From: Candidatus Heimdallarchaeum aukensis
GTDB taxonomy: Archaea > Asgardarchaeota > Heimdallarchaeia > Heimdallarchaeales > Heimdallarchaeaceae
Assembly: GCA_021513695.1 (NCBI GenBank)
Contig: CP084166.1
Location: 768,001-832,000, forward strand
Reading direction: 5' to 3'
Length of the DNA: 64,000 nucleotides
Shown here: piece by piece, positions 4,873 to 38,788 of the stretch
How the letters are laid out: each line of letters opens with the position of its first letter
How positions within the stretch are numbered: position 1 is the stretch's first letter
The notes under the pieces: model-generated
The model's input: the letters and a program-made list of their open reading frames with translations, nothing else
The model's database searches: none
What the model was told of the DNA's origin: nothing
Position numbers and translations under genes: made by a program

Positions 4873-5835
4873 TTATTGGTTTATATATCCGTGCTCAATT
4901 ACACACTTATCAGCGTCTAGATTTAAAACACTTATAGTATACTTTTTGATGTCATCATAACTTGTACTCGTCTTATCTATAAGATCAGCGAGAATATCAA
5001 GCAACCTCCTAGCTTCCTCGTGACTTTCATCAGTTTTTATTACCAATCCAAAGATATGAGATTGTGAAGAACGGAGAATGAATTTATAGTCTTTAGACAT
5101 GATAAACTGAATAATATTTTGTTCATTGAAAGTTTTTTTTGCAAAAGTTTGTATAGCTGAGAGAAAACCAGAATAGAGAGATATTTTATCTGAAAGTTTT
5201 TTCTTTGAGATACTTAAAATTGGCAATCCATCTCTATCTGCAAGTAAAAAAGACTCAGGAGTAACTTTTCTTTTTTGAATAAGTTTAGATAACTGATTTT
5301 GTAACCAATATAGGACAGAATCAAAATTTTCTCCAGTTTGCATGCTTATCTTAAAAAATTGAAAAGAGGCATTTGGAATCATAGCGAGATTATATATTTC
5401 CACGGTATTGATAATTTCTTCCAGGTTCATACTATTTTCTAAATCTGCTTTGTTACACAGAAATAGAATTAGAAACTCATCTCCGTTATCTTTTAACTTT
5501 ATTGACTTCCAAAATTCTTCTTTTGCTTCAAGTAATGATTCTCTATCTGAAGAATCAATGATAAAAATTATCCCATAAGCTAACTTAATGTAATTTTCCC
5601 AGATAGTCTTTCTAAAAACTTCTTGTCCCCCTAAATCAAAAATATTTACTTTTAGATCAAATAGTTCATATTGTTCTAACTGAACCCCCATAGTTGGTTT
5701 AGGACTAGTGAATTTTCCTGTGAGAATTCTGTTAACAAAAGTAGTTTTTCCAGCATTAGGTAAACCTAAAATTACTAAAGGAATTCCTTTTTTCTCAAAA
5801 GAAAGTAGTTTTTCAGATATTTTCTTCTTACTCAA
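4873..5835 (-). CDS. Arf/Arl-like small GTPase fused to a C-terminal roadblock/longin-like domain
   Basis: G1 is GLPNAGKTT, G3 is DLGGQ, the Arf-like interswitch is WENYIKLAYGIIFIIDSSDRESLLEAKEEF, and G4 is NKAD. The C-terminal ~130 aa (FLLADRDGLPILSIS..SGFLSAIQTF..HIFGLVIKTD) fit a roadblock pattern. TTG start. Confidence 0.8.
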   Translation of the reverse strand: MSKKKISEKLLSFEKKGIPLVILGLPNAGKTTFVNRILTGKFTSPKPTMGVQLEQYELFDLKVNIFDLGGQEVFRKTIWENYIKLAYGIIFIIDSSDRESLLEAKEEFWKSIKLKDNGDEFLILFLCNKADLENSMNLEEIINTVEIYNLAMIPNASFQFFKISMQTGENFDSVLYWLQNQLSKLIQKRKVTPESFLLADRDGLPILSISKKKLSDKISLYSGFLSAIQTFAKKTFNEQNIIQFIMSKDYKFILRSSQSHIFGLVIKTDESHEEARRLLDILADLIDKTSTSYDDIKKYTISVLNLDADKCVIEHGYINQ

Positions 5836-26375: not shown

Positions 26376-26645
26376 TTACTAAACACCATTAAACTTACAA
26401 CCTAATTCAAATTGAAATATATATAAGTTTTGTCAAAGAATTTCATATGGTTTTATTCAAGATATAGTGTCGAGAAAGAAAAAATTCTCCATTTTTCTCA
26501 ATTATGCATTTCTTAGCTATTTTTTGTCCTTAGAATTCACTAATAGATAAACAAAATTCTTGTTTCTTCATCGAGAAAATTTAAAACGAAAATTGGGCTG
26601 ATGTGATAAGGTAAAAATTTACTCTTAACTACTATACTGAGAACT

Positions 26646-26879
26646 CTAGGATATTATGCTTATGTAAGCTTTAAACCCTAGATAGTTCAAAGAACGAACT
26701 ACTTTTTTTCTGTTAATTATTGAGGGGTTTAGTCTAACTTTCACATTTTTTGCCTGAAAATCTACGTTACTGTCCATGATTCCTTCTAAATACTTTAAAG
26801 TTATAGCAATTGTCTTCGCACAATTCTTACAGTGAATATCTGGAATGGCAATTGTCAATTCTTCTTCAAATTCTTTCAT
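26646..26879 (-). CDS. heavy-metal-associated (HMA)-like small protein
   Basis: 77 aa. IAIPDIHCKNCAKTI carries the CxxC in the position of the HMA metal loop, and the length suits a beta-alpha-beta-beta-alpha-beta fold. Confidence 0.5.
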   Translation of the reverse strand: MKEFEEELTIAIPDIHCKNCAKTIAITLKYLEGIMDSNVDFQAKNVKVRLNPSIINRKKVVRSLNYLGFKAYISIIS

Positions 26880-27074
26880 TTAATCATCTCAAGATAACGT
26901 ATTTTTAAACCCTTTTTAAAGTTGGGATAATACTAGATGTTGAATCAAGAATATGTAGAAAAAACTTATTTTTTGAAATATTAATAAGTTATTTGACTTA
27001 ACTCGAAAATGAAATGGACTAAATATTTAACAATTAAGAGTTATTTTTTATTTAGATAGTGGAGAGCTGTAAAA

Positions 27075-28376
27075 TTGCAATACTATATTCCAGAATGGGA
27101 CGATATGGTTAGTTCAAGGTATGACTATTGGAATGACACTGAACTACCTGATTCTAGAAAGGTTTATGCACATGAAATTTATCCCAAACCCAACTATGAT
27201 GGAATTTTAGTATCTAGAATGAAGATTGAAGAGAGTAAAACTAAGATTGAAAAAATAAAGAAAGTAGGAGTGCATAGATTTTTCAAGTTCAATGGACCCA
27301 TTTTTGGAGATTGTGGAGCTTGGGGATATATAAATGAAAAAGATCCTCCATTTGAAACAAAAGACATGTTAAATTACTATGAATCTTTTGGCTTTAATAT
27401 AGGTGTTTCCATTGACCACTTATGTATTCCCCAAGTTAAATCAGAATGGTATTATAGACAAGAATTGACACTAAAAAATGCAGAAAAATTTTTCAAATAT
27501 TATGAAAGTGGAGACTATTCTTTTGAAGCAGTAGGGGCAGCTCAAGGATGGGATTTAGAATCGTATAGATATGCAGTGCAAGAATTGCTAGATATAGGAT
27601 ATGATTTTATTGCCTTAGGAGGATTAGCACGAGCACAAACAGGAATAATTATTAAGATTCTTAAAAATATTCAAGATTTAATTAAAGAAAAGAAAATAAA
27701 GATCCATTTATTTGGTGCTGCAAGATTAGATGGCCTACGTGCATTCAATAATTTAGGAGTAACAAGTTTTGATTCAGCTTCTCCTCTTAGAAATGCGTGG
27801 TTAGGTTCTAAAAAGAATTATAGAGGTTTAGATTGGAAGGGTTATACTGCTATTCGTTTACCTTTCCTTTCAAGAACAAAGAAATATCAAAAGTTAGTAG
27901 AGGAAGGACTATTCACTATCAAAGAGCTAGAAGAATTCGAAAAGTCTATCTACGCTCTCCTAAGAAGATATGAAATAGAAAAATCTAGAAGTCCAGAAGA
28001 AATAATAGAAGCTTTTGAAATGCTCAACCAGACATTTACTTTAAGAGATGATCTTAAAGAAGACTACCTTGAAATCTTGAATGAACGACCATGGGAAAAA
28101 TGCTCTTGTCCTGTTTGCAAAGAAGCAGGAATGGATGTAGTTATTTTTAGGGGGAACAACAGGAACAGAAGAAGAGGTTTCCACAACACCTATGTTTTTT
28201 ATCAATTAATGCAGAAAATTCTTAATGAACCTAATTTCAAAGGAACTCCGCATTTAAATTTAATAAATGAAAAAGATTTTTCAATTCCAATTCAAGTTCA
28301 AGCGAAAAAATTAAAATCCAAATTTAACAAACAAACAAAAATTGATAATTTTATAGAACAAATAAGTGAGGAATAG
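27075..28376 (+). CDS. tRNA-guanine-transglycosylase-fold base-exchange enzyme, DpdA-like (no PUA domain)
   Basis: Ordered TGT motifs: FGDCGAWGY, IALGGLARA, HLFGAARLD, and SFDSASPLRNAWLG (catalytic Asp position). The Zn site is CSCPVC followed ~21 aa later by His. The N-terminus YIPEWDDMVSSRYDY..VYAHEIY..YDGILVS resembles DpdA rather than canonical TGT. TTG start with GGAGAG upstream. Confidence 0.65.
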   Translation: MQYYIPEWDDMVSSRYDYWNDTELPDSRKVYAHEIYPKPNYDGILVSRMKIEESKTKIEKIKKVGVHRFFKFNGPIFGDCGAWGYINEKDPPFETKDMLNYYESFGFNIGVSIDHLCIPQVKSEWYYRQELTLKNAEKFFKYYESGDYSFEAVGAAQGWDLESYRYAVQELLDIGYDFIALGGLARAQTGIIIKILKNIQDLIKEKKIKIHLFGAARLDGLRAFNNLGVTSFDSASPLRNAWLGSKKNYRGLDWKGYTAIRLPFLSRTKKYQKLVEEGLFTIKELEEFEKSIYALLRRYEIEKSRSPEEIIEAFEMLNQTFTLRDDLKEDYLEILNERPWEKCSCPVCKEAGMDVVIFRGNNRNRRRGFHNTYVFYQLMQKILNEPNFKGTPHLNLINEKDFSIPIQVQAKKLKSKFNKQTKIDNFIEQISEE

Positions 28377-28378
28377 CA

Positions 28379-29200
28379 ATGAATTCAGAGTTTGAGAATA
28401 TAGCCACCGAAATTATGATACAAGTGGGGACTGAAAAAGAAGAAGCATTAAGATGTCTTTATTACGAACCAAAAAATGAAATAAAACAAACTATTGTTCT
28501 TATTCCAGGTTTTTTTTCTCTGCCTAGTGCTTGGGACGAACTTTTAATAAATGCAAAAGAAGATTATAGAATATTCTTGATTGAAACCAGAGAGAAGCAT
28601 ACAGCAAAAATAAATAAAAAAAGTGACTTTTCTCTGGAACGTTTTGCTAATGACATCGCTGAAGTAATTGATTACTTAATGTTAAAAGATTATATTTTAG
28701 TTACAAGTAGTATGGGAGGAGCTTTCACATTAACTGCAATGAAAGAAAGCTTAATTCACCCTAAACATAGTTTTCTGGTAGGTCCTGTTTTAAGAGTTGA
28801 AATTCCTGATTGGTCATGGCCTTTAGTTAGAATAACTACTCCTTTCTTTTATCGTTTTATCTTAAAACCTTCAATAAAACTTTATGTCAGAAGAAAGTTC
28901 GAAAGAGATCAAGCTGAAAAATACTGTGTTTCATTAGATAACTTAGAAATTAGAAGAGTAAAGAAAACAATGCTAACGCTTAAAAAATTCCGCATTACTG
29001 CTGAAGACCTTAATGTCATAAATTCTCATTGTGTCCTCATAGGAGCTGAAAAGGATAAGCTCCATCAGTCTCAAATTACAAAATGGATTCATGAACAAAT
29101 ACCTAATTCAGACTATGTAGATTTAGGGTCAAATGTAGTTGCACATGGAATTCCACTCTTAGAATTAATAGAAAAAACAATAGAAAAAGATAATAATTGA
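28379..29200 (+). CDS. alpha/beta-fold hydrolase
   Basis: IVLIPGFFS, the nucleophile elbow VTSSMGGA, a late Asp (GAEKDKL) and His (VVAHGIP). Starts 2 nt after the TGT-like stop. Confidence 0.7.
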   Translation: MNSEFENIATEIMIQVGTEKEEALRCLYYEPKNEIKQTIVLIPGFFSLPSAWDELLINAKEDYRIFLIETREKHTAKINKKSDFSLERFANDIAEVIDYLMLKDYILVTSSMGGAFTLTAMKESLIHPKHSFLVGPVLRVEIPDWSWPLVRITTPFFYRFILKPSIKLYVRRKFERDQAEKYCVSLDNLEIRRVKKTMLTLKKFRITAEDLNVINSHCVLIGAEKDKLHQSQITKWIHEQIPNSDYVDLGSNVVAHGIPLLELIEKTIEKDNN

Positions 29201-29278
29201 TTCCTATTATAAAGCAAATTTCTTTTATAAATACCTAATATACCAAAATTTAAAAATTCTTATTTTTTTAATTTAAGT

Positions 29279-30871
29279 ATGCAATTTCTCGCACCTTTTT
29301 CTATAAGACATTCAAAGATATTGGATCAAGATACTTTAGAACAACTAAAAAACGCTCTAAGCAATATAAAAGGGAAAAATATTCTTGTGGAGTTTACCCG
29401 AAACTTTTCTACATTGCTAAAAAACAAAGAAAAAGATAAAGATTTCACAAACTTGGCTTTAGATATCTTTTTCTCAATTGAAGATTATGAAAAAATCCTA
29501 GAATACTCATCGCCCCTTTACGCCGCAGAGTATTATTTTTATCGGGCATTAGCTTTCTATAAACTTAATCAGTTCAATAAGATTGCAAGCCTTAAGCTAC
29601 AATTTGAGATGAAATTTGAGAGAGCATTAGATTTACCTCGTAATCGCTTAATACTTGCTTTTTTAGATCTTTTTATTACTCTTAAAGAAAATCCTGAAGA
29701 AGTCGATCTTAAACTAGAAGAAATAGGTGCGTTTTTAGATAGCCAAGATGAAGAATTCAAAAGTAAATTTTGGGTCATAATAGTATTTTCCTATTATTCT
29801 GAACTCTTATTTATAAGAGATCACTTGAATAAAACAGAAGAAATTGCTAGATTGATTCTTTCCTATTCTCTTCAAAATCAAGACCCATACTTACAAAGTA
29901 ATGCACTCATATTGCTTTCCTCAATTTATATAAGAAAAGGAGAATTTAGAAAAGCAAAACAAATGATTAAATCCTCTCTTGTTCCTGTTAATCAAACAGG
30001 AGAACTAACAAATAAAGCTAAAATACTAAACAATCTTCTGCTTTTAGATTTAGCAAAAATGGACTATCTAAAAGCAGTTGATAGAATTTCAAAGATGAAA
30101 GAACTAAAAATAAGTGATACAAAAAGAAAAGAGTTAGAGATACTTGAACTCAAGTTAAAAATTCATTTAAAACTTGAAAATAATATAGAAGAAAAAATTA
30201 ATGAAATAACTTCAGATTTAGAAAAAGAAGATGAATTCTATCAAGATATTCTCCTCCTACAGTGTTGGTATAGCTTAAAAAAGAAGAACTATGACGAAGC
30301 AAAGAAAACAATAGAAGAACACCTAAAACTCACAGAAAATAACCTAAGTTCATTGTTGAAAAATCGATATTATTATGGATTATATCATAAAGAAGTAGAA
30401 GACTATGAAAAAGCTTTTTCAGATTTTGAGGAAGTAATTGAACTAAGTAAAAAAGACTACAAAATAGAATTATTAGTAAAAAGTTTGATGCATTTCCTTG
30501 ATCTTGCTTTCTCTAATAATAACGAAAAGTATTCGCTTTCTGAAATTATTCAAAAGATAAACATTTTGGAAGAAACTTCAACAAAGCAATTTATTCCTAA
30601 ATTGCAAGTAGATGCTTTAATGATAAAAATGATTTTCACACTTCTAAATTCAACAGAAATAGACATTATGGAAGATTGGGAAAATGCAATGAAAAAAGTT
30701 CATAAATTTAGATACATTGATCGTGTTAAACAACTAAACATAATAAGAAGTTGCTCTGAAAACAATTCTGAAAATAACAATATATATCAACTTGAAGAAT
30801 TATTCAAAGAAATAATACAACCTTACGAATGCTTCTTTTTTATTAAGAAGCCAAAGAAAGAAGAGGGGTAG
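29279..30871 (+). CDS. TPR-like all-helical repeat protein
   Basis: 530 aa of repeated helix pairs with Y/A/L spacing (AEYYFYRALAFYKLNQFNKI, LLSSIYIRKGEFRKAKQMI, YYYGLYHKEVEDYEKAFSDFEEVI). No NTPase motif. Confidence 0.6.
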   Translation: MQFLAPFSIRHSKILDQDTLEQLKNALSNIKGKNILVEFTRNFSTLLKNKEKDKDFTNLALDIFFSIEDYEKILEYSSPLYAAEYYFYRALAFYKLNQFNKIASLKLQFEMKFERALDLPRNRLILAFLDLFITLKENPEEVDLKLEEIGAFLDSQDEEFKSKFWVIIVFSYYSELLFIRDHLNKTEEIARLILSYSLQNQDPYLQSNALILLSSIYIRKGEFRKAKQMIKSSLVPVNQTGELTNKAKILNNLLLLDLAKMDYLKAVDRISKMKELKISDTKRKELEILELKLKIHLKLENNIEEKINEITSDLEKEDEFYQDILLLQCWYSLKKKNYDEAKKTIEEHLKLTENNLSSLLKNRYYYGLYHKEVEDYEKAFSDFEEVIELSKKDYKIELLVKSLMHFLDLAFSNNNEKYSLSEIIQKINILEETSTKQFIPKLQVDALMIKMIFTLLNSTEIDIMEDWENAMKKVHKFRYIDRVKQLNIIRSCSENNSENNNIYQLEELFKEIIQPYECFFFIKKPKKEEG

Positions 30872-30952: not shown

Positions 30953-31120
30953 ATGACACAAAAATGGATTTGTACTTTATGTGGCTACATTTATGACCCT
31001 GCCGAAGGAGACCCTGACGGAGGAATCGCTCCAGGAACAGCTTTTGAAGATATCCCTGAAGATTGGGTTTGTCCTGAATGCGGAGCTGCAAAAGAAGATT
31101 TCGAACCCTATGAAGAATAA
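30953..31120 (+). CDS. rubredoxin
   Basis: A 55-aa ORF below the track cutoff: [55 protein letters not shown]. It has two CxxCG knuckles and the conserved YDP and PG..F..P..W.CP pattern. AGAGGA lies upstream. Confidence 0.92.
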
Positions 31121-31142: not shown

Positions 31143-32327
31143 TTACAACTTTCTATTTTTTCTTGATAATTGAACTATTTTTTTTATTACTACAAATTCT
31201 GTTTCATTTAGGACGTTTTTTGTGATTTTTATTTTTTCTTGCTGAATTCTTACTTGGTTTGCATATTCATTCTCAACTAATAGCTCCATCTCCTCTGTTA
31301 TCGCTCCATCTACATTTGTTTTAATAACTTCCATGAGGTTATTATATTTTTCTAGTATTTTTTCATAAACAGCTAATTTTGAAGAGAATTTTGATGTATA
31401 CTTATTTATTTCTTCAGCTCGTTTAATGTCTATAGAAGTTAAACTATCAGTAGCTTCAGATAAATCTCTTAATTCTTCTTCACTAAATTCTCTTTTAACA
31501 AAACTTGAAATTATAGAAATAAGTGATTTATCCAGCAAATAATCTGTTTTTCTCTCATAGCTTATACTAGGGATTGATTTTGATAGAGAAGATTTTTTAC
31601 TTTTGAAGGTAGTATCTTTTTTTTCTGTTGTTAAATACTTTTCAACAAGAACTAATTTTTCATTCCACCATTCCTTAAAAGAAAGACCAGGAGTATATTC
31701 AATAGCAAAATTTAGAAAAATTGTTCCTTTAGCTAAAACTGTTGCGCCTATAGGTTTTTTGAATATGGGTTTACTTGTTCTTTTACCTACAAAGTCATAT
31801 GTACTAAAAGAATGAAAGTTTGAGGGAAGATCTTTTGCTTTACCAAAAAAAATTATTTCTTTTCCAAGATTTGCTAAATCTTTGAGATCTCCTAAAGTTA
31901 CTAAATAATCTTCTCCTAACGAAAGATAAACAAGATCATAAGTTTTTTTGGATAATTTTCTAACAGATTCTGGAATAGCTAATTTTTCTGCTCTTTCTTT
32001 TATTGCTTTTTTTGATAAGCCTGAAAAAGTGCACTCATAAGGAGGAAGAAGTTCATTCTCATTAACTAATCCAAAACCTGCAGAAATAATGTAATAATCA
32101 ACTTCAGCTTTTGACGAAAGAATCTTAACAGCTTTTTTTATTGCAAGAGCTTGTCCACCTATGTATAATTCTCCTGCTTCTCTTAATAATGAAGAAAATT
32201 TTTCTTTTGCACTTTCTCTTTGATCTTTTGTTTCTAGGTCCTTACATGTTGGTTGATCATCATGTTGTACAGACTTTTTCTTTCCACAAGAGTTAATAAC
32301 AAGTATTGAAGGTTTCAGAGATCTCAC
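31143..32327 (-). CDS. DUF6884-like N-terminal domain fused to a long coiled-coil
   Basis: ILVINSCGKKKS, ELYIGGQA and YYIISAGFGLVNENELLPPYECTF match my recollection of the DUF6884 pattern (SC.k.K .. LY .. ilSA..GL..p...l.PYd). The C-terminal ~170 aa are heptad-rich. Confidence 0.45.
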   Translation of the reverse strand: MRSLKPSILVINSCGKKKSVQHDDQPTCKDLETKDQRESAKEKFSSLLREAGELYIGGQALAIKKAVKILSSKAEVDYYIISAGFGLVNENELLPPYECTFSGLSKKAIKERAEKLAIPESVRKLSKKTYDLVYLSLGEDYLVTLGDLKDLANLGKEIIFFGKAKDLPSNFHSFSTYDFVGKRTSKPIFKKPIGATVLAKGTIFLNFAIEYTPGLSFKEWWNEKLVLVEKYLTTEKKDTTFKSKKSSLSKSIPSISYERKTDYLLDKSLISIISSFVKREFSEEELRDLSEATDSLTSIDIKRAEEINKYTSKFSSKLAVYEKILEKYNNLMEVIKTNVDGAITEEMELLVENEYANQVRIQQEKIKITKNVLNETEFVVIKKIVQLSRKNRKL

Positions 32328-32333
32328 CTAAAG

Positions 32334-32753
32334 CTATTCAGTATCCTTTTTTGCCAAATATCGATTATAAAATCTTTTAATTTTCTTTTTTTCGAGATCA
32401 AAATCTAGATCTTTACTATTTTTGCCTTCTTGCCTTTCCATTTTATTGAGTTTACTTTGAATTTTGCTTAGTTTTAGAGCAAGCATTGAATTTCTTCTAA
32501 AAAGTTCACTGTTTTCAAAAAACAAAACCCCATATGCTTTTCTAAGTTTACTATACTTTATTGTTAATTCATTATATCGTTCTCTTAATTCTTCAAGATT
32601 CTTAAGTAGACTAACCTCATCAATTTGTAAATCCTCGCTGTTTAATGCCAGAAAATCATAATAATCAAGGAGTGTGTTAATTATATCATCAGTATATTCA
32701 GTAACATCTTCAAAAATAGCAGGAATCTTGACATTAGTGATCATTTTCTTCAT
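32334..32753 (-). CDS. coiled-coil protein
   Basis: 139 aa, helical and charged. Its start overlaps the upstream stop by 4 nt, and a 6-nt gap separates it from the downstream gene. Confidence 0.5.
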   Translation of the reverse strand: MKKMITNVKIPAIFEDVTEYTDDIINTLLDYYDFLALNSEDLQIDEVSLLKNLEELRERYNELTIKYSKLRKAYGVLFFENSELFRRNSMLALKLSKIQSKLNKMERQEGKNSKDLDFDLEKKKIKRFYNRYLAKKDTE

Positions 32754-33106
32754 TTTGCTACACCTTTTAGAATACCATCTAACTTCTCTTCAAGTTCAGT
32801 AATAACATTATAATCTTCATTATATTCTTTCTTCATTTGTTTTTCTTCTTCTATACTTTTTTTCAATTTTTCAATTTCTTTTTCTCTTTCTGGAATTTTC
32901 TCCAAAAGAGCCTTATATTCTAGTATATACTCCACAAATGCCCAAGAAAGCTTTTTTTCTTTGTTATATTCTGTAAGAAACTTAAAAAATTGGTTTACTT
33001 TTTCTATTATTGTTTCAGATTTTTCCTTTCTCTCTTCAGCGATTCTAGCAATTTTTCGCTGAATTCTTGAGGAAAAAGAAATCTTTACTTTCTCTTGTTT
33101 TTTCAT
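32750..33106 (-). CDS. possible ribbon-helix-helix DNA-binding domain plus coiled-coil
   Basis: The N-terminus KVKISFSSRIQRKIARIAEERKEKSETIIEKV fits the strand-helix-helix of CopG/Arc-type RHH. The remainder is coiled-coil. First gene of the minus-strand trio. Confidence 0.4.
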   Translation of the reverse strand: MKKQEKVKISFSSRIQRKIARIAEERKEKSETIIEKVNQFFKFLTEYNKEKKLSWAFVEYILEYKALLEKIPEREKEIEKLKKSIEEEKQMKKEYNEDYNVITELEEKLDGILKGVAK

Positions 33107-33678: not shown

Positions 33679-35265
33679 TTGATGAGATTTGTTTTATTTT
33701 CTGATACCCATATTGGTGGAAGATATGATGAAATGATATTGATGAAAGGTATAGATTTTATTAATAACATTGATGGAGATATTTTTATTCACTGTGGAGA
33801 TTTAACTGGTTCTGGCACTTTGGCTGAATATGAGATTGCTAGACTTTATTTAGAAAAAATCAAGAAAAGGCCTTTTTTCATTGTTCCTGGAAATCATGAC
33901 TGCAAAAATGTGGGTGATTTACTTTTTGAAGAAATAGTTGGTGAGCGTTTTTGGGTAAAGACATTCGAAAAAAAGAAAACTCGGATTCTTGGTCTTGACT
34001 CTACTGAACCCGATGCAAATACTGGAAGAATGGGTCCTAAATCAATAAAAAGAATTTATGAAGAATTTGAGGATTTACCAGAATATTGGTTAAAAGTTTT
34101 AGTTTTTCATCATCAGACTTTACCAATTCCCTATACTGGTAGAGAAAGAAGTGCAATCAAAGATGCAGGAGATGTAGTGAAAGCTATTCTTGATTGTAAC
34201 ATTCATCTTGTTTTCAATGGTCATAGGCACATTTCTAATGTCTATAAGATGTCTGATGGAGTAGTAAATGCTTGGATTATTAATGTTGGTACATTATCTT
34301 GTAAAAAAACTAGATATAGAGAAGAGTATAGCTTAACTGTCGTTGATGCTTCTTTAAAGAAAAACAACCTTGCTATTCGTAGTATACTACTTAAGAAAGA
34401 GCCTATCAGAGAAGTTGTAAAATATTCTGGTAAATTCCAACGTTTTATTGCCCCTATGAATAAGAAACACATAGCAACAATAATTCAAATAGGCAATACA
34501 GCTTTTTCTAATTCACGATTTAGGATGGGTAATTTCTACAAAGGTCTCGAAACAATTAATCTCATCCCTTGTGATGTAGTTGTCCATTGTGGAGAAGTTA
34601 CAGGTGCCTCCTATGTCAATGAGTTTCAAAGAGCAAAGGCTTTATTATCTCAAATAGAAAAACCTCTTATTGTTGTTCCAGGAGATAATGATGCTTTTCC
34701 ACTTGGTTGGGATTTGTTTCCTGAGTACATTGGTGATCCTAACCCCTATTTTGAGAATGAGCATTTGATTGTTAAAGGGTTCAATACTTGCTTAATTGAC
34801 GAACAAGAGGGAAGACTCGGAAGAGGAAATATGAAAGAGATGATAACAACATTTGAGAATAAATCAAAAATAGGAGTAGTAGCTTTTCATCATTCAATAA
34901 TGCCTTTACCTCACTCTAAACATGATGCAGAGCTAATAGATGCAGGAGATGTTCTTGCTGCCATAGTAAACCACAGAATCAATCTCGTTTTAACTGGAGC
35001 TAAAAATAGAAGCGGGTGTTGGCAAGTTAACGACACTGTATTTGTAAATGCTGGAACACTCAGCTCTGAAAATATTACTACAAGAGACGGAAATAGTTTC
35101 AACATAATAACCATTAGCCAAACAGATATAGGTAAACTTTACGAGGTCGATGAGTATTTTGTTGAAACAAACGAAAGAAAAACTATTGGAGTTTTCCATA
35201 TTTCTGATAGGGGGATACCTATTCTCATTCCTGATAGAAAGGTTCCCAACACCATTCATTTATGA
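33679..35265 (+). CDS. tandem calcineurin-like metallophosphoesterase: intact N-domain plus degenerate C-domain
   Basis: Domain 1 has FSDTHIG, CGDLTGSG, PGNHD, FHHQ and NGHRH. Domain 2 has IGNTAFS, CGEVTGAS, PGDNDAF, FHHS and TGAKNRS at the same positions, so most metal ligands are lost. Confidence 0.8.
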   Translation: MMRFVLFSDTHIGGRYDEMILMKGIDFINNIDGDIFIHCGDLTGSGTLAEYEIARLYLEKIKKRPFFIVPGNHDCKNVGDLLFEEIVGERFWVKTFEKKKTRILGLDSTEPDANTGRMGPKSIKRIYEEFEDLPEYWLKVLVFHHQTLPIPYTGRERSAIKDAGDVVKAILDCNIHLVFNGHRHISNVYKMSDGVVNAWIINVGTLSCKKTRYREEYSLTVVDASLKKNNLAIRSILLKKEPIREVVKYSGKFQRFIAPMNKKHIATIIQIGNTAFSNSRFRMGNFYKGLETINLIPCDVVVHCGEVTGASYVNEFQRAKALLSQIEKPLIVVPGDNDAFPLGWDLFPEYIGDPNPYFENEHLIVKGFNTCLIDEQEGRLGRGNMKEMITTFENKSKIGVVAFHHSIMPLPHSKHDAELIDAGDVLAAIVNHRINLVLTGAKNRSGCWQVNDTVFVNAGTLSSENITTRDGNSFNIITISQTDIGKLYEVDEYFVETNERKTIGVFHISDRGIPILIPDRKVPNTIHL

Positions 35266-38242: not shown

Positions 38243-38788
38243 GTGATACAGAGGAACTACAAAATAATACTTATTGGAAATGCTCTTGTTGGAAAAACTG
38301 CTATTGTAACACGTTTTGCTAAAGATTACTTTGAACAGAACTATTTGAGAACGCTAGGAATCAATTACTACATAAAGACACAAGTAATTACTAATGTAGA
38401 AGTAAAGATGATTATTACAGACACCGCAGGACAAGAAGCGTTTCAACGCCTAAGAAGTTCGTATTACAAGGGGGCAAGAGGAGCAATAATTGTTTATGCA
38501 ATAAATGACAGACATAGCTTTGGACAAGTTGATTATTGGAAGAATGAAATGTTCAAGACTTTAAAAGAAATCCCAATAATAATTGTCGGAAATAAAATTG
38601 ACTTAATCGATCAAAGAAGAATATCAACAAGTGAAGGACGCTTGTTAGCGAAAAAATTGGGTTGTTTATTTATTGAATCATCTGCTAAAACAGGAGAAAA
38701 TATTGATAAAATCTTTGAAATGATAGTTAAAGATATACTAAGAAAAGATAATTTAATAACAGAAGAAAAAGAAGAAAGTTCTACTTAA
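38243..38788 (+). CDS. Rab-like small GTPase
   Basis: G1 is GNALVGKT, G3 is DTAGQE, then YYKGARGAIIVY, G4 is GNKIDL and G5 is SAKTGEN. There is no C-terminal Cys, so no prenylation motif. Confidence 0.85.
   Translation: MIQRNYKIILIGNALVGKTAIVTRFAKDYFEQNYLRTLGINYYIKTQVITNVEVKMIITDTAGQEAFQRLRSSYYKGARGAIIVYAINDRHSFGQVDYWKNEMFKTLKEIPIIIVGNKIDLIDQRRISTSEGRLLAKKLGCLFIESSAKTGENIDKIFEMIVKDILRKDNLITEEKEESST

Follow-up and report, generated by a model that had tools for sequence, protein, structure and literature searches.

Seven genes lie between positions 27075 and 33106 of the window, by which is meant the whole 64,000-nucleotide stretch of the Candidatus Heimdallarchaeum aukensis sequence that was analysed. 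Four are read on the plus strand and three on the minus strand:

27075..28376, plus strand: dpdA, a DpdA-family guanine transglycosylase of 433 aa with a TTG start (NF041059, PADLOC DpdA, PDB 7UI4)
28379..29200, plus strand: alpha/beta-fold serine hydrolase, 273 aa (Pfam Abhydrolase_6, 29.6 bits)
29279..30871, plus strand: helical repeat (weak TPR) protein, 530 aa (Pfam TPR_2, 30.8 bits)
30953..31120, plus strand: rubredoxin, 55 aa, with the TPR gene on one side and the convergent DUF6884 gene on the other (Pfam Rubredoxin)
31143..32327, minus strand: DpdC-like DUF6884 protein, 394 aa (Pfam DUF6884, PADLOC DpdC)
32334..32753, minus strand: coiled-coil protein, 139 aa, directly preceding the DUF6884 gene in the same direction (no family match)
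32750..33106, minus strand: coiled-coil protein, 118 aa, first gene of the minus-strand block (orthologues in comparison loci L003 and L013)

The first three genes are co-directional, with 2 nt between dpdA and the hydrolase gene and 78 nt between the hydrolase and TPR genes; their positions and the 2-nt gap are those of the original prediction, in which these three genes formed the unit of interest. Its reading of the second and third products also agrees with the family matches, which are of the alpha/beta-hydrolase type for one (Ser111, Asp226 and His256 are invariant in three orthologues) and weakly of the TPR type for the other. The DUF6884 gene begins 272 bp past the TPR stop codon, in convergent orientation, and closes a minus-strand block that runs in the order 118-aa protein, 139-aa protein, DUF6884. 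The Asgard origin given in the original prediction is also correct. The nearest genome is that of Ca. Heimdallarchaeum endolithica PR6; in comparison with it, dN/dS is 0.06 for DpdA, 0.19 for the DUF6884 gene, 0.05 for the hydrolase, 0.09 for the TPR protein, 0.09 for the 139-aa protein and 0.06 for the 118-aa protein, and all six genes (0.05 to 0.19) are under purifying selection.

The transglycosylase and its active site

The 433-aa protein scores 388.3 bits against the NCBIfam DpdA equivalog NF041059 (its residues 1-381 spanning positions 1-405 of the 406 in the profile), for which the cutoff is 200 bits, and it matches PADLOC DpdA at 1.2e-105. Its best solved relative is the Salmonella DNA-guanine transglycosylase (PDB 7UI4; 3.6e-67 over residues 2-383). 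In this alignment, D79, D114 and D233 of the window protein fall on Salmonella D95, D130 and D256, and the zinc site C343, C345, C348 and H370 falls on C368, C370, C373 and H395. In the Salmonella enzyme D256 is the nucleophile, D95 the general acid/base and D130 a base-binding residue, and the enzyme is inactive when Ala replaces either D95 or D256 (PMC10164549). The catalytic Asp and zinc-site residues of the window protein are invariant across 14 aligned relatives. The motifs to which attention had originally been drawn are all in place (GDCGAW at residue 78, GGL at 182, HLFGA at 211, FDSASP at 232, CSCPVC at 343 and GFHN at 368), as are the three catalytic Asp residues and the CxCxxC...H zinc site.

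The original prediction had also described the protein as DpdA-like and lacking a PUA domain, and both descriptions hold: Pfam gives a TGT domain alone, with no C2 or PUA domain, and the C-terminal tail of 50 aa has no family match. Nor is it the catalytic subunit of a split archaeosine enzyme, as it reaches 45.8 bits against arcTGT (TIGR00432, cutoff 350); against bacterial TGT it reaches 31 bits (cutoff 307). Judging from its sequence, the window protein is a genuine, full-length member of the DpdA family. By analogy with the Salmonella enzyme, it probably exchanges guanine for a 7-deazaguanine in DNA. Close homologues already carry the name DpdA at NCBI, and no paper on an Asgard DpdA was found.

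A DpdC-like partner and its linkage to DpdA

The product of the gene at 31143-32327 scores 32.3 bits against Pfam DUF6884 (PF21818, gathering cutoff 30). Its best match among the PADLOC DpdC profiles is PDLC02815 (1.3e-10), with residues 7-114 on positions 6-114 of 312; a true DpdC matches over its full length with 470 bits. Because the match is limited to the opening stretch of the DpdC profiles (about 110 of about 310 positions), the chemistry of the window protein may differ from that of DpdC. In a pairwise comparison, Enterobacter DpdC matches the window DUF6884 domain with an E-value of 2e-6; as a tblastn query it matches DUF6884 genes in five Asgard loci and nothing in the window at E 1e-3. 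The N-terminal domain (about residues 1-232) has a YaaA-type fold, and C14, K18 and S82-A83-G84-x-G86 do not vary among 31 sequences, these being the CxxxK and LSAxxG motifs of DUF6884 (PMC11701544). DpdC-like DUF6884 domains and the ArcS C1 domain possibly have a common fold and Cys-x3-Lys motif, and both would belong to enzymes working on the preQ0 nitrile within a polynucleotide.

In Asgard lineages, the DUF6884 protein carries or neighbours a further region, here called X, of about 290 aa with a helical and a beta-rich part, which matches no family and does not occur in the bacterial loci. The window protein has the helical part of this Asgard-specific C-terminal region directly after the YaaA-fold domain; the beta-rich final ~150 aa of its relatives are missing, and no remnant of them was found. 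In addition, the DUF6884 block is inverted and downstream of dpdA in Heimdallarchaeum, while in L003 it lies directly upstream. The shortened product and the displaced 118-aa/139-aa/DUF6884 block, along with the absence of DpdB and restriction genes, are what might be expected of a decaying remnant, split by inversion and left with a truncated partner and no modification. This reading is nevertheless highly improbable, as H. endolithica keeps both the arrangement and the 394-aa length, dN/dS is low in six genes, and the catalytic and motif residues are all intact.

Linkage to DpdA was followed through comparison loci from other Asgard lineages and from bacteria. In L003, L004, L006 and L008, which represent four other Asgard lineages, the DUF6884 gene immediately precedes DpdA, and in the Thor/Loki loci L009 and L010 it is divergently adjacent; the two adjoin in every other Asgard locus with readable neighbouring sequence. 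In bacterial relatives of about 680 aa (L011, L012, L014-L018 and L022), DUF6884 is fused N-terminally to DpdA, and among the 70 metagenome loci that extend far enough upstream, 64 have it. Profile match, fold and linkage together identify the window DUF6884 protein as DpdC-like and as a conserved partner of DpdA. The original prediction had stated that no known partner such as DpdB or DpdC was adjacent, which does not hold, given the DpdC-like gene, and it had taken the unusual partner set as an argument for novelty; that argument falls away with a DpdC-like gene in the locus that is linked or fused to DpdA in relatives. By treating the locus as a three-gene operon, the original prediction thus misses the partner that is truly conserved.

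The hydrolase and TPR genes are distributed much more narrowly. The hydrolase adjoins DpdA only in the two nearest genomes, L003 (61% identity) and L013 (90%), both Heimdallarchaeaceae, and TPR orthologues are likewise confined to L003 (about 37-39%) and L013 (84%). In both loci DpdA is followed, as in the window, by the hydrolase, TPR and rubredoxin genes in that order, and the coiled-coil genes also accompany DUF6884, with the 139-aa protein at 55% identity in L003 (136 aa) and 79% in L013, and the 118-aa protein, its order kept, at 42% (115 aa) and 87%. Neither the hydrolase nor the TPR gene is found in the other 15 distinct comparison loci, among them the Asgard loci L004, L006, L008, L009, L010 and L019 (45-63% DpdA identity) and the bacterial loci L011-L012 and L014-L018; in L019, at 63% DpdA identity, they are already missing. 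They are also absent from all 80 metagenome loci. The proposal that DpdA, hydrolase and TPR protein make up a new three-component base-exchange system, the latter two replacing DpdB and DpdC, can draw on the tight, co-directional spacing, on low dN/dS (0.05 and 0.09), and on a gene order that is retained in L003 even though the DUF6884 block there lies on the other side of DpdA. Synteny within one family is expected from shared ancestry alone, however, and this distribution, together with the presence of a DpdC-like partner in the locus, makes the proposal improbable. Alpha/beta hydrolases are not known to take part in 7-deazaguanine chemistry. The hydrolase, TPR and rubredoxin genes are most likely, from their distribution, neighbours inherited within Heimdallarchaeaceae rather than conserved components. 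As the neighbourhood is not conserved, a circumstance that the original prediction had itself named as refuting, the hydrolase/TPR part of that hypothesis fails; what stands is a DpdA with intact catalytic residues in an Asgard archaeon.

A probable reduced Dpd-type module

Other parts of Dpd systems are absent here. With Enterobacter DpdB and PCC 7113 DndB as tblastn queries, neither the window nor nine Asgard loci gave a DpdB/DndB match; the window holds no DpdJ or helicase homologue, and no helicase or nuclease near the locus appears among the Pfam matches for roughly the first 60 kb of the window. None of the DpdD-K restriction genes occurs within 64 kb. The ParB_N gene immediately outside the left end of the window is of the chromosomal ParB/Noc type and gives no DpdB match. 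The preQ0 synthesis genes folE, queD, queE and queC were not found in the window, and a radical SAM gene at its left edge is not QueE but a member of the SPASM family TIGR04084. Salmonella DpdA requires DpdB and ATP (PMC10164549).

Taken together, the locus is best read as a reduced, restriction-less Dpd-type module for 7-deazaguanine modification that belongs to one clade of Asgard DpdA proteins, a reading to which we assign a probability of about 0.62. Directly observed are the family membership, the intactness of the catalytic residues, the fold of the DUF6884 protein, its linkage and fusion to DpdA, and purifying selection. DpdA, a TIM-barrel transglycosylase, would excise guanine from double-stranded DNA, forming a covalent intermediate between Asp233 and the deoxyribose while Asp79 serves as general acid/base, and would insert preQ0 drawn from the cellular pool of archaeosine precursor. 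The DUF6884 protein may then act on the inserted base through an active site formed by the invariant Cys14-x3-Lys18 and SAGxG, hydrating the nitrile to a carboxamide (dADG) or yielding a related derivative. This course of events is the most likely one, both in its use of DNA and preQ0 and in the chemistry of the DUF6884 step; DNA itself is extrapolated from an enzyme of 35% identity and is, on that footing, the most likely substrate. Since no DpdB-type ATPase, helicase or nuclease (DpdD-K) lies in the 64 kb, a DNA mark made here would be without a linked restriction arm. Several features weigh against this reading: the lack of DpdB, the inverted DUF6884 block and its shortened product, the absence of preQ0 genes from the window, and the base-contact changes H181 to Q157, L236 to F213 and F265 to W242.

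The substrate could instead be tRNA or another RNA, the enzyme belonging to an Asgard-specific archaeosine-type branch that is DpdA-like in sequence only. The Asgard loci are without restriction genes, and those of Thor/Loki sit amid housekeeping genes (ATP synthase, Hef, SRP54), where the gene after DpdA encodes a standalone ArcS C1-type domain (Pfam DUF5591, motif PCSKKKPIQQSHSH; 2e-12 against NCBIfam ArcS alpha); this setting leaves room for an RNA role. Moreover, the 46 unfused DpdA proteins form one clade that takes in every homologue named Asgard by a source, which looks more like inheritance than island hopping. Residue 157 is Gln in the window protein and His in Salmonella DpdA, and the position is presumably Gln in tRNA TGTs as well. 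Against these points stand the scores far below the tRNA TGT cutoffs, the missing PUA and C2 domains, and the nearest bacterial relatives, whose dpd restriction-modification islands also hold genes of the DpdJ, PLD and DndB types. In DNA-modifying viruses, too, DpdA comes with standalone ArcS C1 genes (PMC10516641), and YaaA, a fold relative of the DUF6884 partner, is described as a DNA-binding protein (PMC11701544). An RNA substrate is considered unlikely.

So far, the documented cases of 7-deazaguanine in DNA come from phages, archaeal viruses and bacteria that have dpd islands. If the module reading is correct, a DpdA and DpdC-like pair without a restriction arm extends this DNA chemistry to archaeal cells, and the role of an orphan deazaguanine mark in Asgard chromosomes becomes a question. 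More tentatively, Heimdall, Loki and Thor Asgard archaea may share a single, chromosomally embedded DpdA clade with a DpdC-like partner and the Asgard-only X region, without DpdB or restriction genes, which, if it acts on DNA, might provide a stand-alone 7-deazaguanine mark, possibly of a housekeeping or epigenetic type. Such a mark would be the first in a cellular archaeal chromosome, and it would lie in the closest archaeal relatives of eukaryotes. A weaker variant of this reading would have the hydrolase and TPR proteins recruited as extra components in Heimdallarchaeaceae. For experiments, the focus shifts to 27075-28376 and 31143-32327, away from the hydrolase and TPR genes.

Comparison with known systems

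The archaeosine enzyme arcTGT/TgtA (PDB 1IQ8, including split forms) shares with the window DpdA the TIM-barrel core, the Asp residues, the zinc site and the expected use of preQ0. The alignment is confined to the core (E 2.5e-7), the TIGR00432 score is low, and the window protein differs in having no C1, C2 or PUA domain; no PUA partner turns up among the Pfam matches over about 60 kb of the window. The DpdA of the Salmonella Montevideo dpd island (7UI4) is closer, being itself without PUA and aligning over residues 2-383 at 35% identity with the same three Asp residues and zinc site. Among base-contact residues, the window protein has Q157, F213, W242 and W83 where Salmonella has H181, L236, F265 and F99, and it has its own 50-aa tail, no adjacent dpdB, and no dpdD-K in 64 kb.

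DpdC, a DUF328/YaaA-like protein that converts preQ0-DNA to ADG-DNA, resembles the window DUF6884 protein in its YaaA fold, in the core region LY.GG...[IL]SAG.GL...PY..TF, and in an obligate genomic linkage to DpdA. The window protein differs in that its match ends after the N-terminal third of the DpdC profiles and in belonging to Pfam DUF6884 and not DUF328, and Asgard DUF6884 proteins carry or neighbour the ~290-aa X region.

The closest non-Asgard relatives of the window DpdA are the DUF6884-DpdA fusions of cyanobacterial and Paenibacillus dpd islands (44-48% identity). One of these, WP_015211588 of Allocoleopsis/Microcoleus PCC 7113, has QueD, DndB, a DpdJ-like helicase and a PLD nuclease as neighbours, and its locus has been drawn as a dpd cluster (PMC5699537). 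The companions of the fusions (DndB, DpdJ-like helicases, PLD or PD-(D/E)XK nucleases) are not present at the window, nor is the second TGT paralogue of about 300 aa that often accompanies them, and what is one polypeptide in bacteria is encoded by two separate, convergent genes in the window. At the fourth position that differs from Salmonella, Asgard DpdA has Trp or Tyr and the bacterial fusions have Phe. The fusions share with the window both the DUF6884 domain and the clade-specific residues Q157, F213 and W242.

The transglycosylase gene and its closest relatives

The three open reading frames of the original prediction are present where it placed them, all on the plus strand and with 2 nt between the first two:

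27075-28376, plus strand: DpdA gene, 433 aa, TTG start
28379-29200, plus strand: alpha/beta hydrolase gene, 273 aa, with Pfam alpha/beta-hydrolase matches
29279-30871, plus strand: TPR protein gene, 530 aa, with weak Pfam TPR matches

The first of these encodes a member of the DpdA family, as had been proposed from the sequence alone. The protein scores 388 bits against the NCBIfam DpdA equivalog NF041059 (cutoff 200; residues 1-381) and 1e-105 against the PADLOC DpdA model, while the archaeosine (arcTGT) and bacterial TGT models both fall under their cutoffs (45.8 bits against 350 and 31 bits against 307, respectively). Among solved structures its best relative is 7UI4, the DNA-guanine transglycosylase of Salmonella Montevideo (E 3.6e-67, residues 2-383), and the P. 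horikoshii arcTGT aligns over the core region only (E 2.5e-7). The profile scores and the alignment to solved structures rule out a split arcTGT, and on these grounds the protein is assigned to DpdA rather than to the archaeosine enzymes. The absence of a PUA domain was read correctly, since the Pfam search returns the TGT domain alone. The same identification has already been made by automated annotation, the nearest homologues bearing the NCBI name "tRNA-guanine transglycosylase DpdA"; in the literature searched, a link between DpdA and Asgard archaea receives a passing mention at most, and the Heimdallarchaeum genome paper mentions neither transglycosylases nor deazaguanine (PMC8813620).

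All of the TGT motifs listed earlier are found in the protein: GDCGAW at residue 78, GGL at 182, HLFGA at 211, FDSASP at 232, CSCPVC at 343 and GFHN at 368. In a MAFFT alignment, D79, D114 and D233 correspond to D95, D130 and D256 of Salmonella DpdA, in which mutation of D95 or D256 leads to loss of activity (PMC10164549). These aspartates and the zinc ligands (C343, C345, C348 and H370), which likewise align with the Salmonella enzyme, are invariant in 14/14 relatives aligned. Four near-base positions differ from Salmonella DpdA. Three of them, H181 to Q157, L236 to F213 and F265 to W242 (window numbering second), are changed in all 14 relatives, whereas the position of Salmonella F99 (W83 here) is variable, being Trp or Tyr in Asgard proteins and Phe in bacterial fusions. 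Upstream, a GGAG precedes the TTG start, and the sole ORF in the 700 nt 5' of dpdA (26376-27074) encodes a 77-aa HMA (heavy-metal-associated) protein on the minus strand, at ~26646-26879.

The exact DpdA protein also occurs on a Logan contig from run SRR15988954, and the closest species-representative genome is that of Ca. Heimdallarchaeum endolithica PR6 (CP084167.1), with a DpdA 89% identical and an identical gene order. It is because two species conserve the locus that we regard a decayed remnant as very unlikely. Neighbour joining on the 120 best hits, with Salmonella DpdA as the root, gave a rough tree from a limited sample in which this protein groups with 45 others that are likewise unfused; no fused protein falls within this clade, and every homologue that a source calls Heimdall, Loki or Thor does. 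Base composition does not mark the locus as a foreign island, GC being even at ~0.30 throughout the window. Scans of the window yielded zero tRNA genes and zero Rfam families, and so point to neither an integration site nor an RNA element, and the viral contigs scanned with DpdA contained no relatives.

A DpdC-like gene linked to DpdA

The original prediction held that neither DpdB nor DpdC was adjacent, and in doing so overlooked a convergent gene that begins 272 bp beyond the TPR stop codon, followed by two small genes that travel with it in the two nearest comparison loci (L003 and L013, both Heimdallarchaeaceae):

31143-32327, minus strand: DUF6884 protein gene, 394 aa
32334-32753, minus strand: coiled-coil protein gene
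32750-33106, minus strand: coiled-coil protein gene

The first product scores 32.3 bits for Pfam DUF6884, where the cutoff is 30, and reaches 1.3e-10 with the PADLOC DpdC model. It carries both of the motifs that define DUF6884, CxxxK and LSAxxG (PMC11701544), and S13, C14, K18, S82, A83, G84 and G86 are invariant across a 31-sequence alignment. The DpdC of an Enterobacter dpd island is alignable only around LY.GG...SAG.GL..PY..TF (E 2e-6), and the protein covers only the first ~110 positions of DpdC profiles. Given this limited alignment and coverage, it is classed as a DpdC-like protein and not as DpdC. The coiled-coil proteins gave no significant Pfam match and no usable PADLOC match.

Linkage of the DUF6884 gene to DpdA extends to every comparison locus with readable neighbouring sequence. 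In four loci from Heimdall-group or related lineages (L003, L004, L006 and L008, with DpdA identities to the window protein of 69%, 57%, 57% and 45%), the gene immediately precedes DpdA in the same orientation; in L009 and L010, from Loki and Thor, the two genes are adjacent and divergent. In the closest bacterial relatives (44-48% identity), a homologous domain stands N-terminal to DpdA in one protein of ~680 aa, and this gene fusion is strong evidence that the two share a common function. Scanning metagenomes with the Asgard DpdA alignment as seed gave 80 loci, mostly of the bacterial fused type, and the domain is present in 64 of the 70 with at least 900 nt upstream.

The two coiled-coil genes (139 and 118 aa in the window) and the DUF6884 gene form a block, whose counterpart in L003 (5401-7884) directly precedes dpdA and has its orientation. 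In both Heimdallarchaeum genomes this block (window 31143-33106) is inverted and placed after a rubredoxin gene, and the 3' end of the DUF6884 gene seen in L003 has been lost. Asgard DUF6884 proteins of the long type (527-536 aa) end in a region of ~290 aa, here called X, that passes from helical to beta-rich and forms its own ORF in L006, L009 and L010:

L003 7054-7884, strand not given: X module
L006 7173-7964, strand not given: X module
L009 6333-7196, strand not given: X module
L010 6334-7194, strand not given: X module

Of this region, the window and H. endolithica proteins retain the helical part alone, and tblastn across the window found no remnant of the missing C-terminal beta domain. 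X has no significant Pfam match, its beta-rich part giving sub-threshold hints only, and no PADLOC match; it is specific to Asgard, being absent from the bacterial loci and found in 0/80 metagenome loci.

The hydrolase and TPR genes

Compared with H. endolithica, dN/dS is 0.05 for the hydrolase and 0.09 for the TPR gene; both genes are real and under purifying selection. The idea of an unusual partner set is not supported. Orthologues stand 3' of DpdA in L003 (61% identity for the hydrolase, ~37-39% for the TPR protein) and L013 (90% and 84%) only, and the three-gene unit is not conserved beyond these: both are missing from L004, L006, L008-L012 and L014-L018 and from all 80 metagenome loci. 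A Heimdallarchaeaceae MAG (L019; 63% DpdA identity) has a convergent metallo-beta-lactamase gene at this place instead, and in a reverse metagenome scan the patterns from the hydrolase alignment matched nothing related. The adjacency is limited to the closest relatives, where shared ancestry accounts for it as well as shared function does, and a base-exchange system built on the hydrolase and TPR proteins appears improbable.

Just past the minus-strand block, the 528-aa product of 33679-35265 (plus strand) carries a calcineurin-like metallophosphoesterase domain twice, and no evidence tying it to the module was found. Small GTPases of the Arf/Ras/Roc family, typical Asgard eukaryotic-signature proteins, are encoded at 4873-5835 (minus) and 38243-38788 (plus) and bear no relation to the Dpd locus.

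Proposed reaction and comparison with known Dpd systems

Most likely, DpdA would exchange guanine in DNA for preQ0 by double displacement, the mechanism established for TGTs and Salmonella DpdA, and the DUF6884 protein would next convert the polymer-bound nitrile, with the amide (dADG) as the simplest product. The analysis itself establishes the family of DpdA, its conserved residues, the YaaA-type fold of the partner, their linkage and purifying selection, whereas DNA as substrate, preQ0 as the inserted base and the chemistry of the DUF6884 step are inferred. The published assemblies were made with a PCR barcoding kit or MDA (PMC8813620), which erases base modifications. An RNA substrate is unlikely by comparison, and what speaks for it is the housekeeping context and an ArcS-C1-like neighbour in the Thor and Loki loci. 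The gene directly 3' of DpdA in L009 (9259-9783) and L010 (9256-9774) encodes a standalone ArcS C1-type domain (Pfam DUF5591; NCBIfam ArcS alpha, 2e-12), whose motif PCSKKKPIQQSHSH is a near match to the ArcS signature PC-X3-KPY-X2-S-X2-H. Counting this one, two different proteins predicted to modify preQ0 stand with DpdA in these loci.

No tblastn match to DpdB, DndB, DpdJ or the island helicases was obtained in the 64-kb window or the Asgard loci, and Pfam lists covering ~60 kb of the window hold ordinary metabolic and Asgard-signature genes but no preQ0 pathway genes. Two left-edge genes were considered and set aside: the ParB_N gene is of the chromosomal ParB/Noc type rather than DpdB, and the radical SAM gene encodes a SPASM-family TIGR04084 enzyme rather than QueE. 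For phage DpdAs, on our reading, a need for DpdB is not reported (PMC6884629; PMC10516641), and one might speculate that X could stand in for it in Asgard archaea. The interest that remains lies in a reduced, restriction-less variant (DpdA, the DpdC-like protein and X) common to Asgard lineages, of which no discussion was found in the literature searched.

Fuller systems surround its relatives. In Allocoleopsis (Microcoleus) PCC 7113, the genes beside the fusion encode QueD, DndB, a DpdJ-like helicase of 1672 aa and a PLD nuclease, and PMC5699537 shows this locus among its dpd clusters. In other fusion loci the companions are 2-3 DEAD/ResIII helicases, an additional ~300-aa TGT paralogue and a gene of HerA-like or PD-(D/E)XK type. 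The clade of the window DpdA therefore has bacterial members in restriction-modification islands. Beside the DUF6884-DpdA gene, a further, short paralogue with a TGT domain (~300-345 aa) is encoded repeatedly, in bacterial islands, one Heimdall-related locus and one Haloarcula plasmid; the copy in L004, the one scored, is far under the DpdA cutoff:

L011 6159-7082, strand not given: short TGT paralogue
L012 16994-17950, strand not given: short TGT paralogue
L004 9270-10166, strand not given: short TGT paralogue
L024 12580-13614, strand not given: short TGT paralogue

The haloarchaeal plasmid form of DpdA is accompanied by QueD, QueE, an EVE-domain gene and a nuclease. In L024, plasmid pHsi139 of Haloarcula sinaiiensis (NZ_CP073372.1), DpdA is contained in a protein of 969 aa that carries the annotation hypothetical, and next to it are encoded QueE, QueD, an EVE-domain protein, the small TGT, a nuclease of the PD-(D/E)XK type and a BREX-type ATPase. 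This arrangement has the look of a defence island of Dpd-like type in cellular archaea. Of the bacterial island, the Asgard DpdA loci keep only the modification half.
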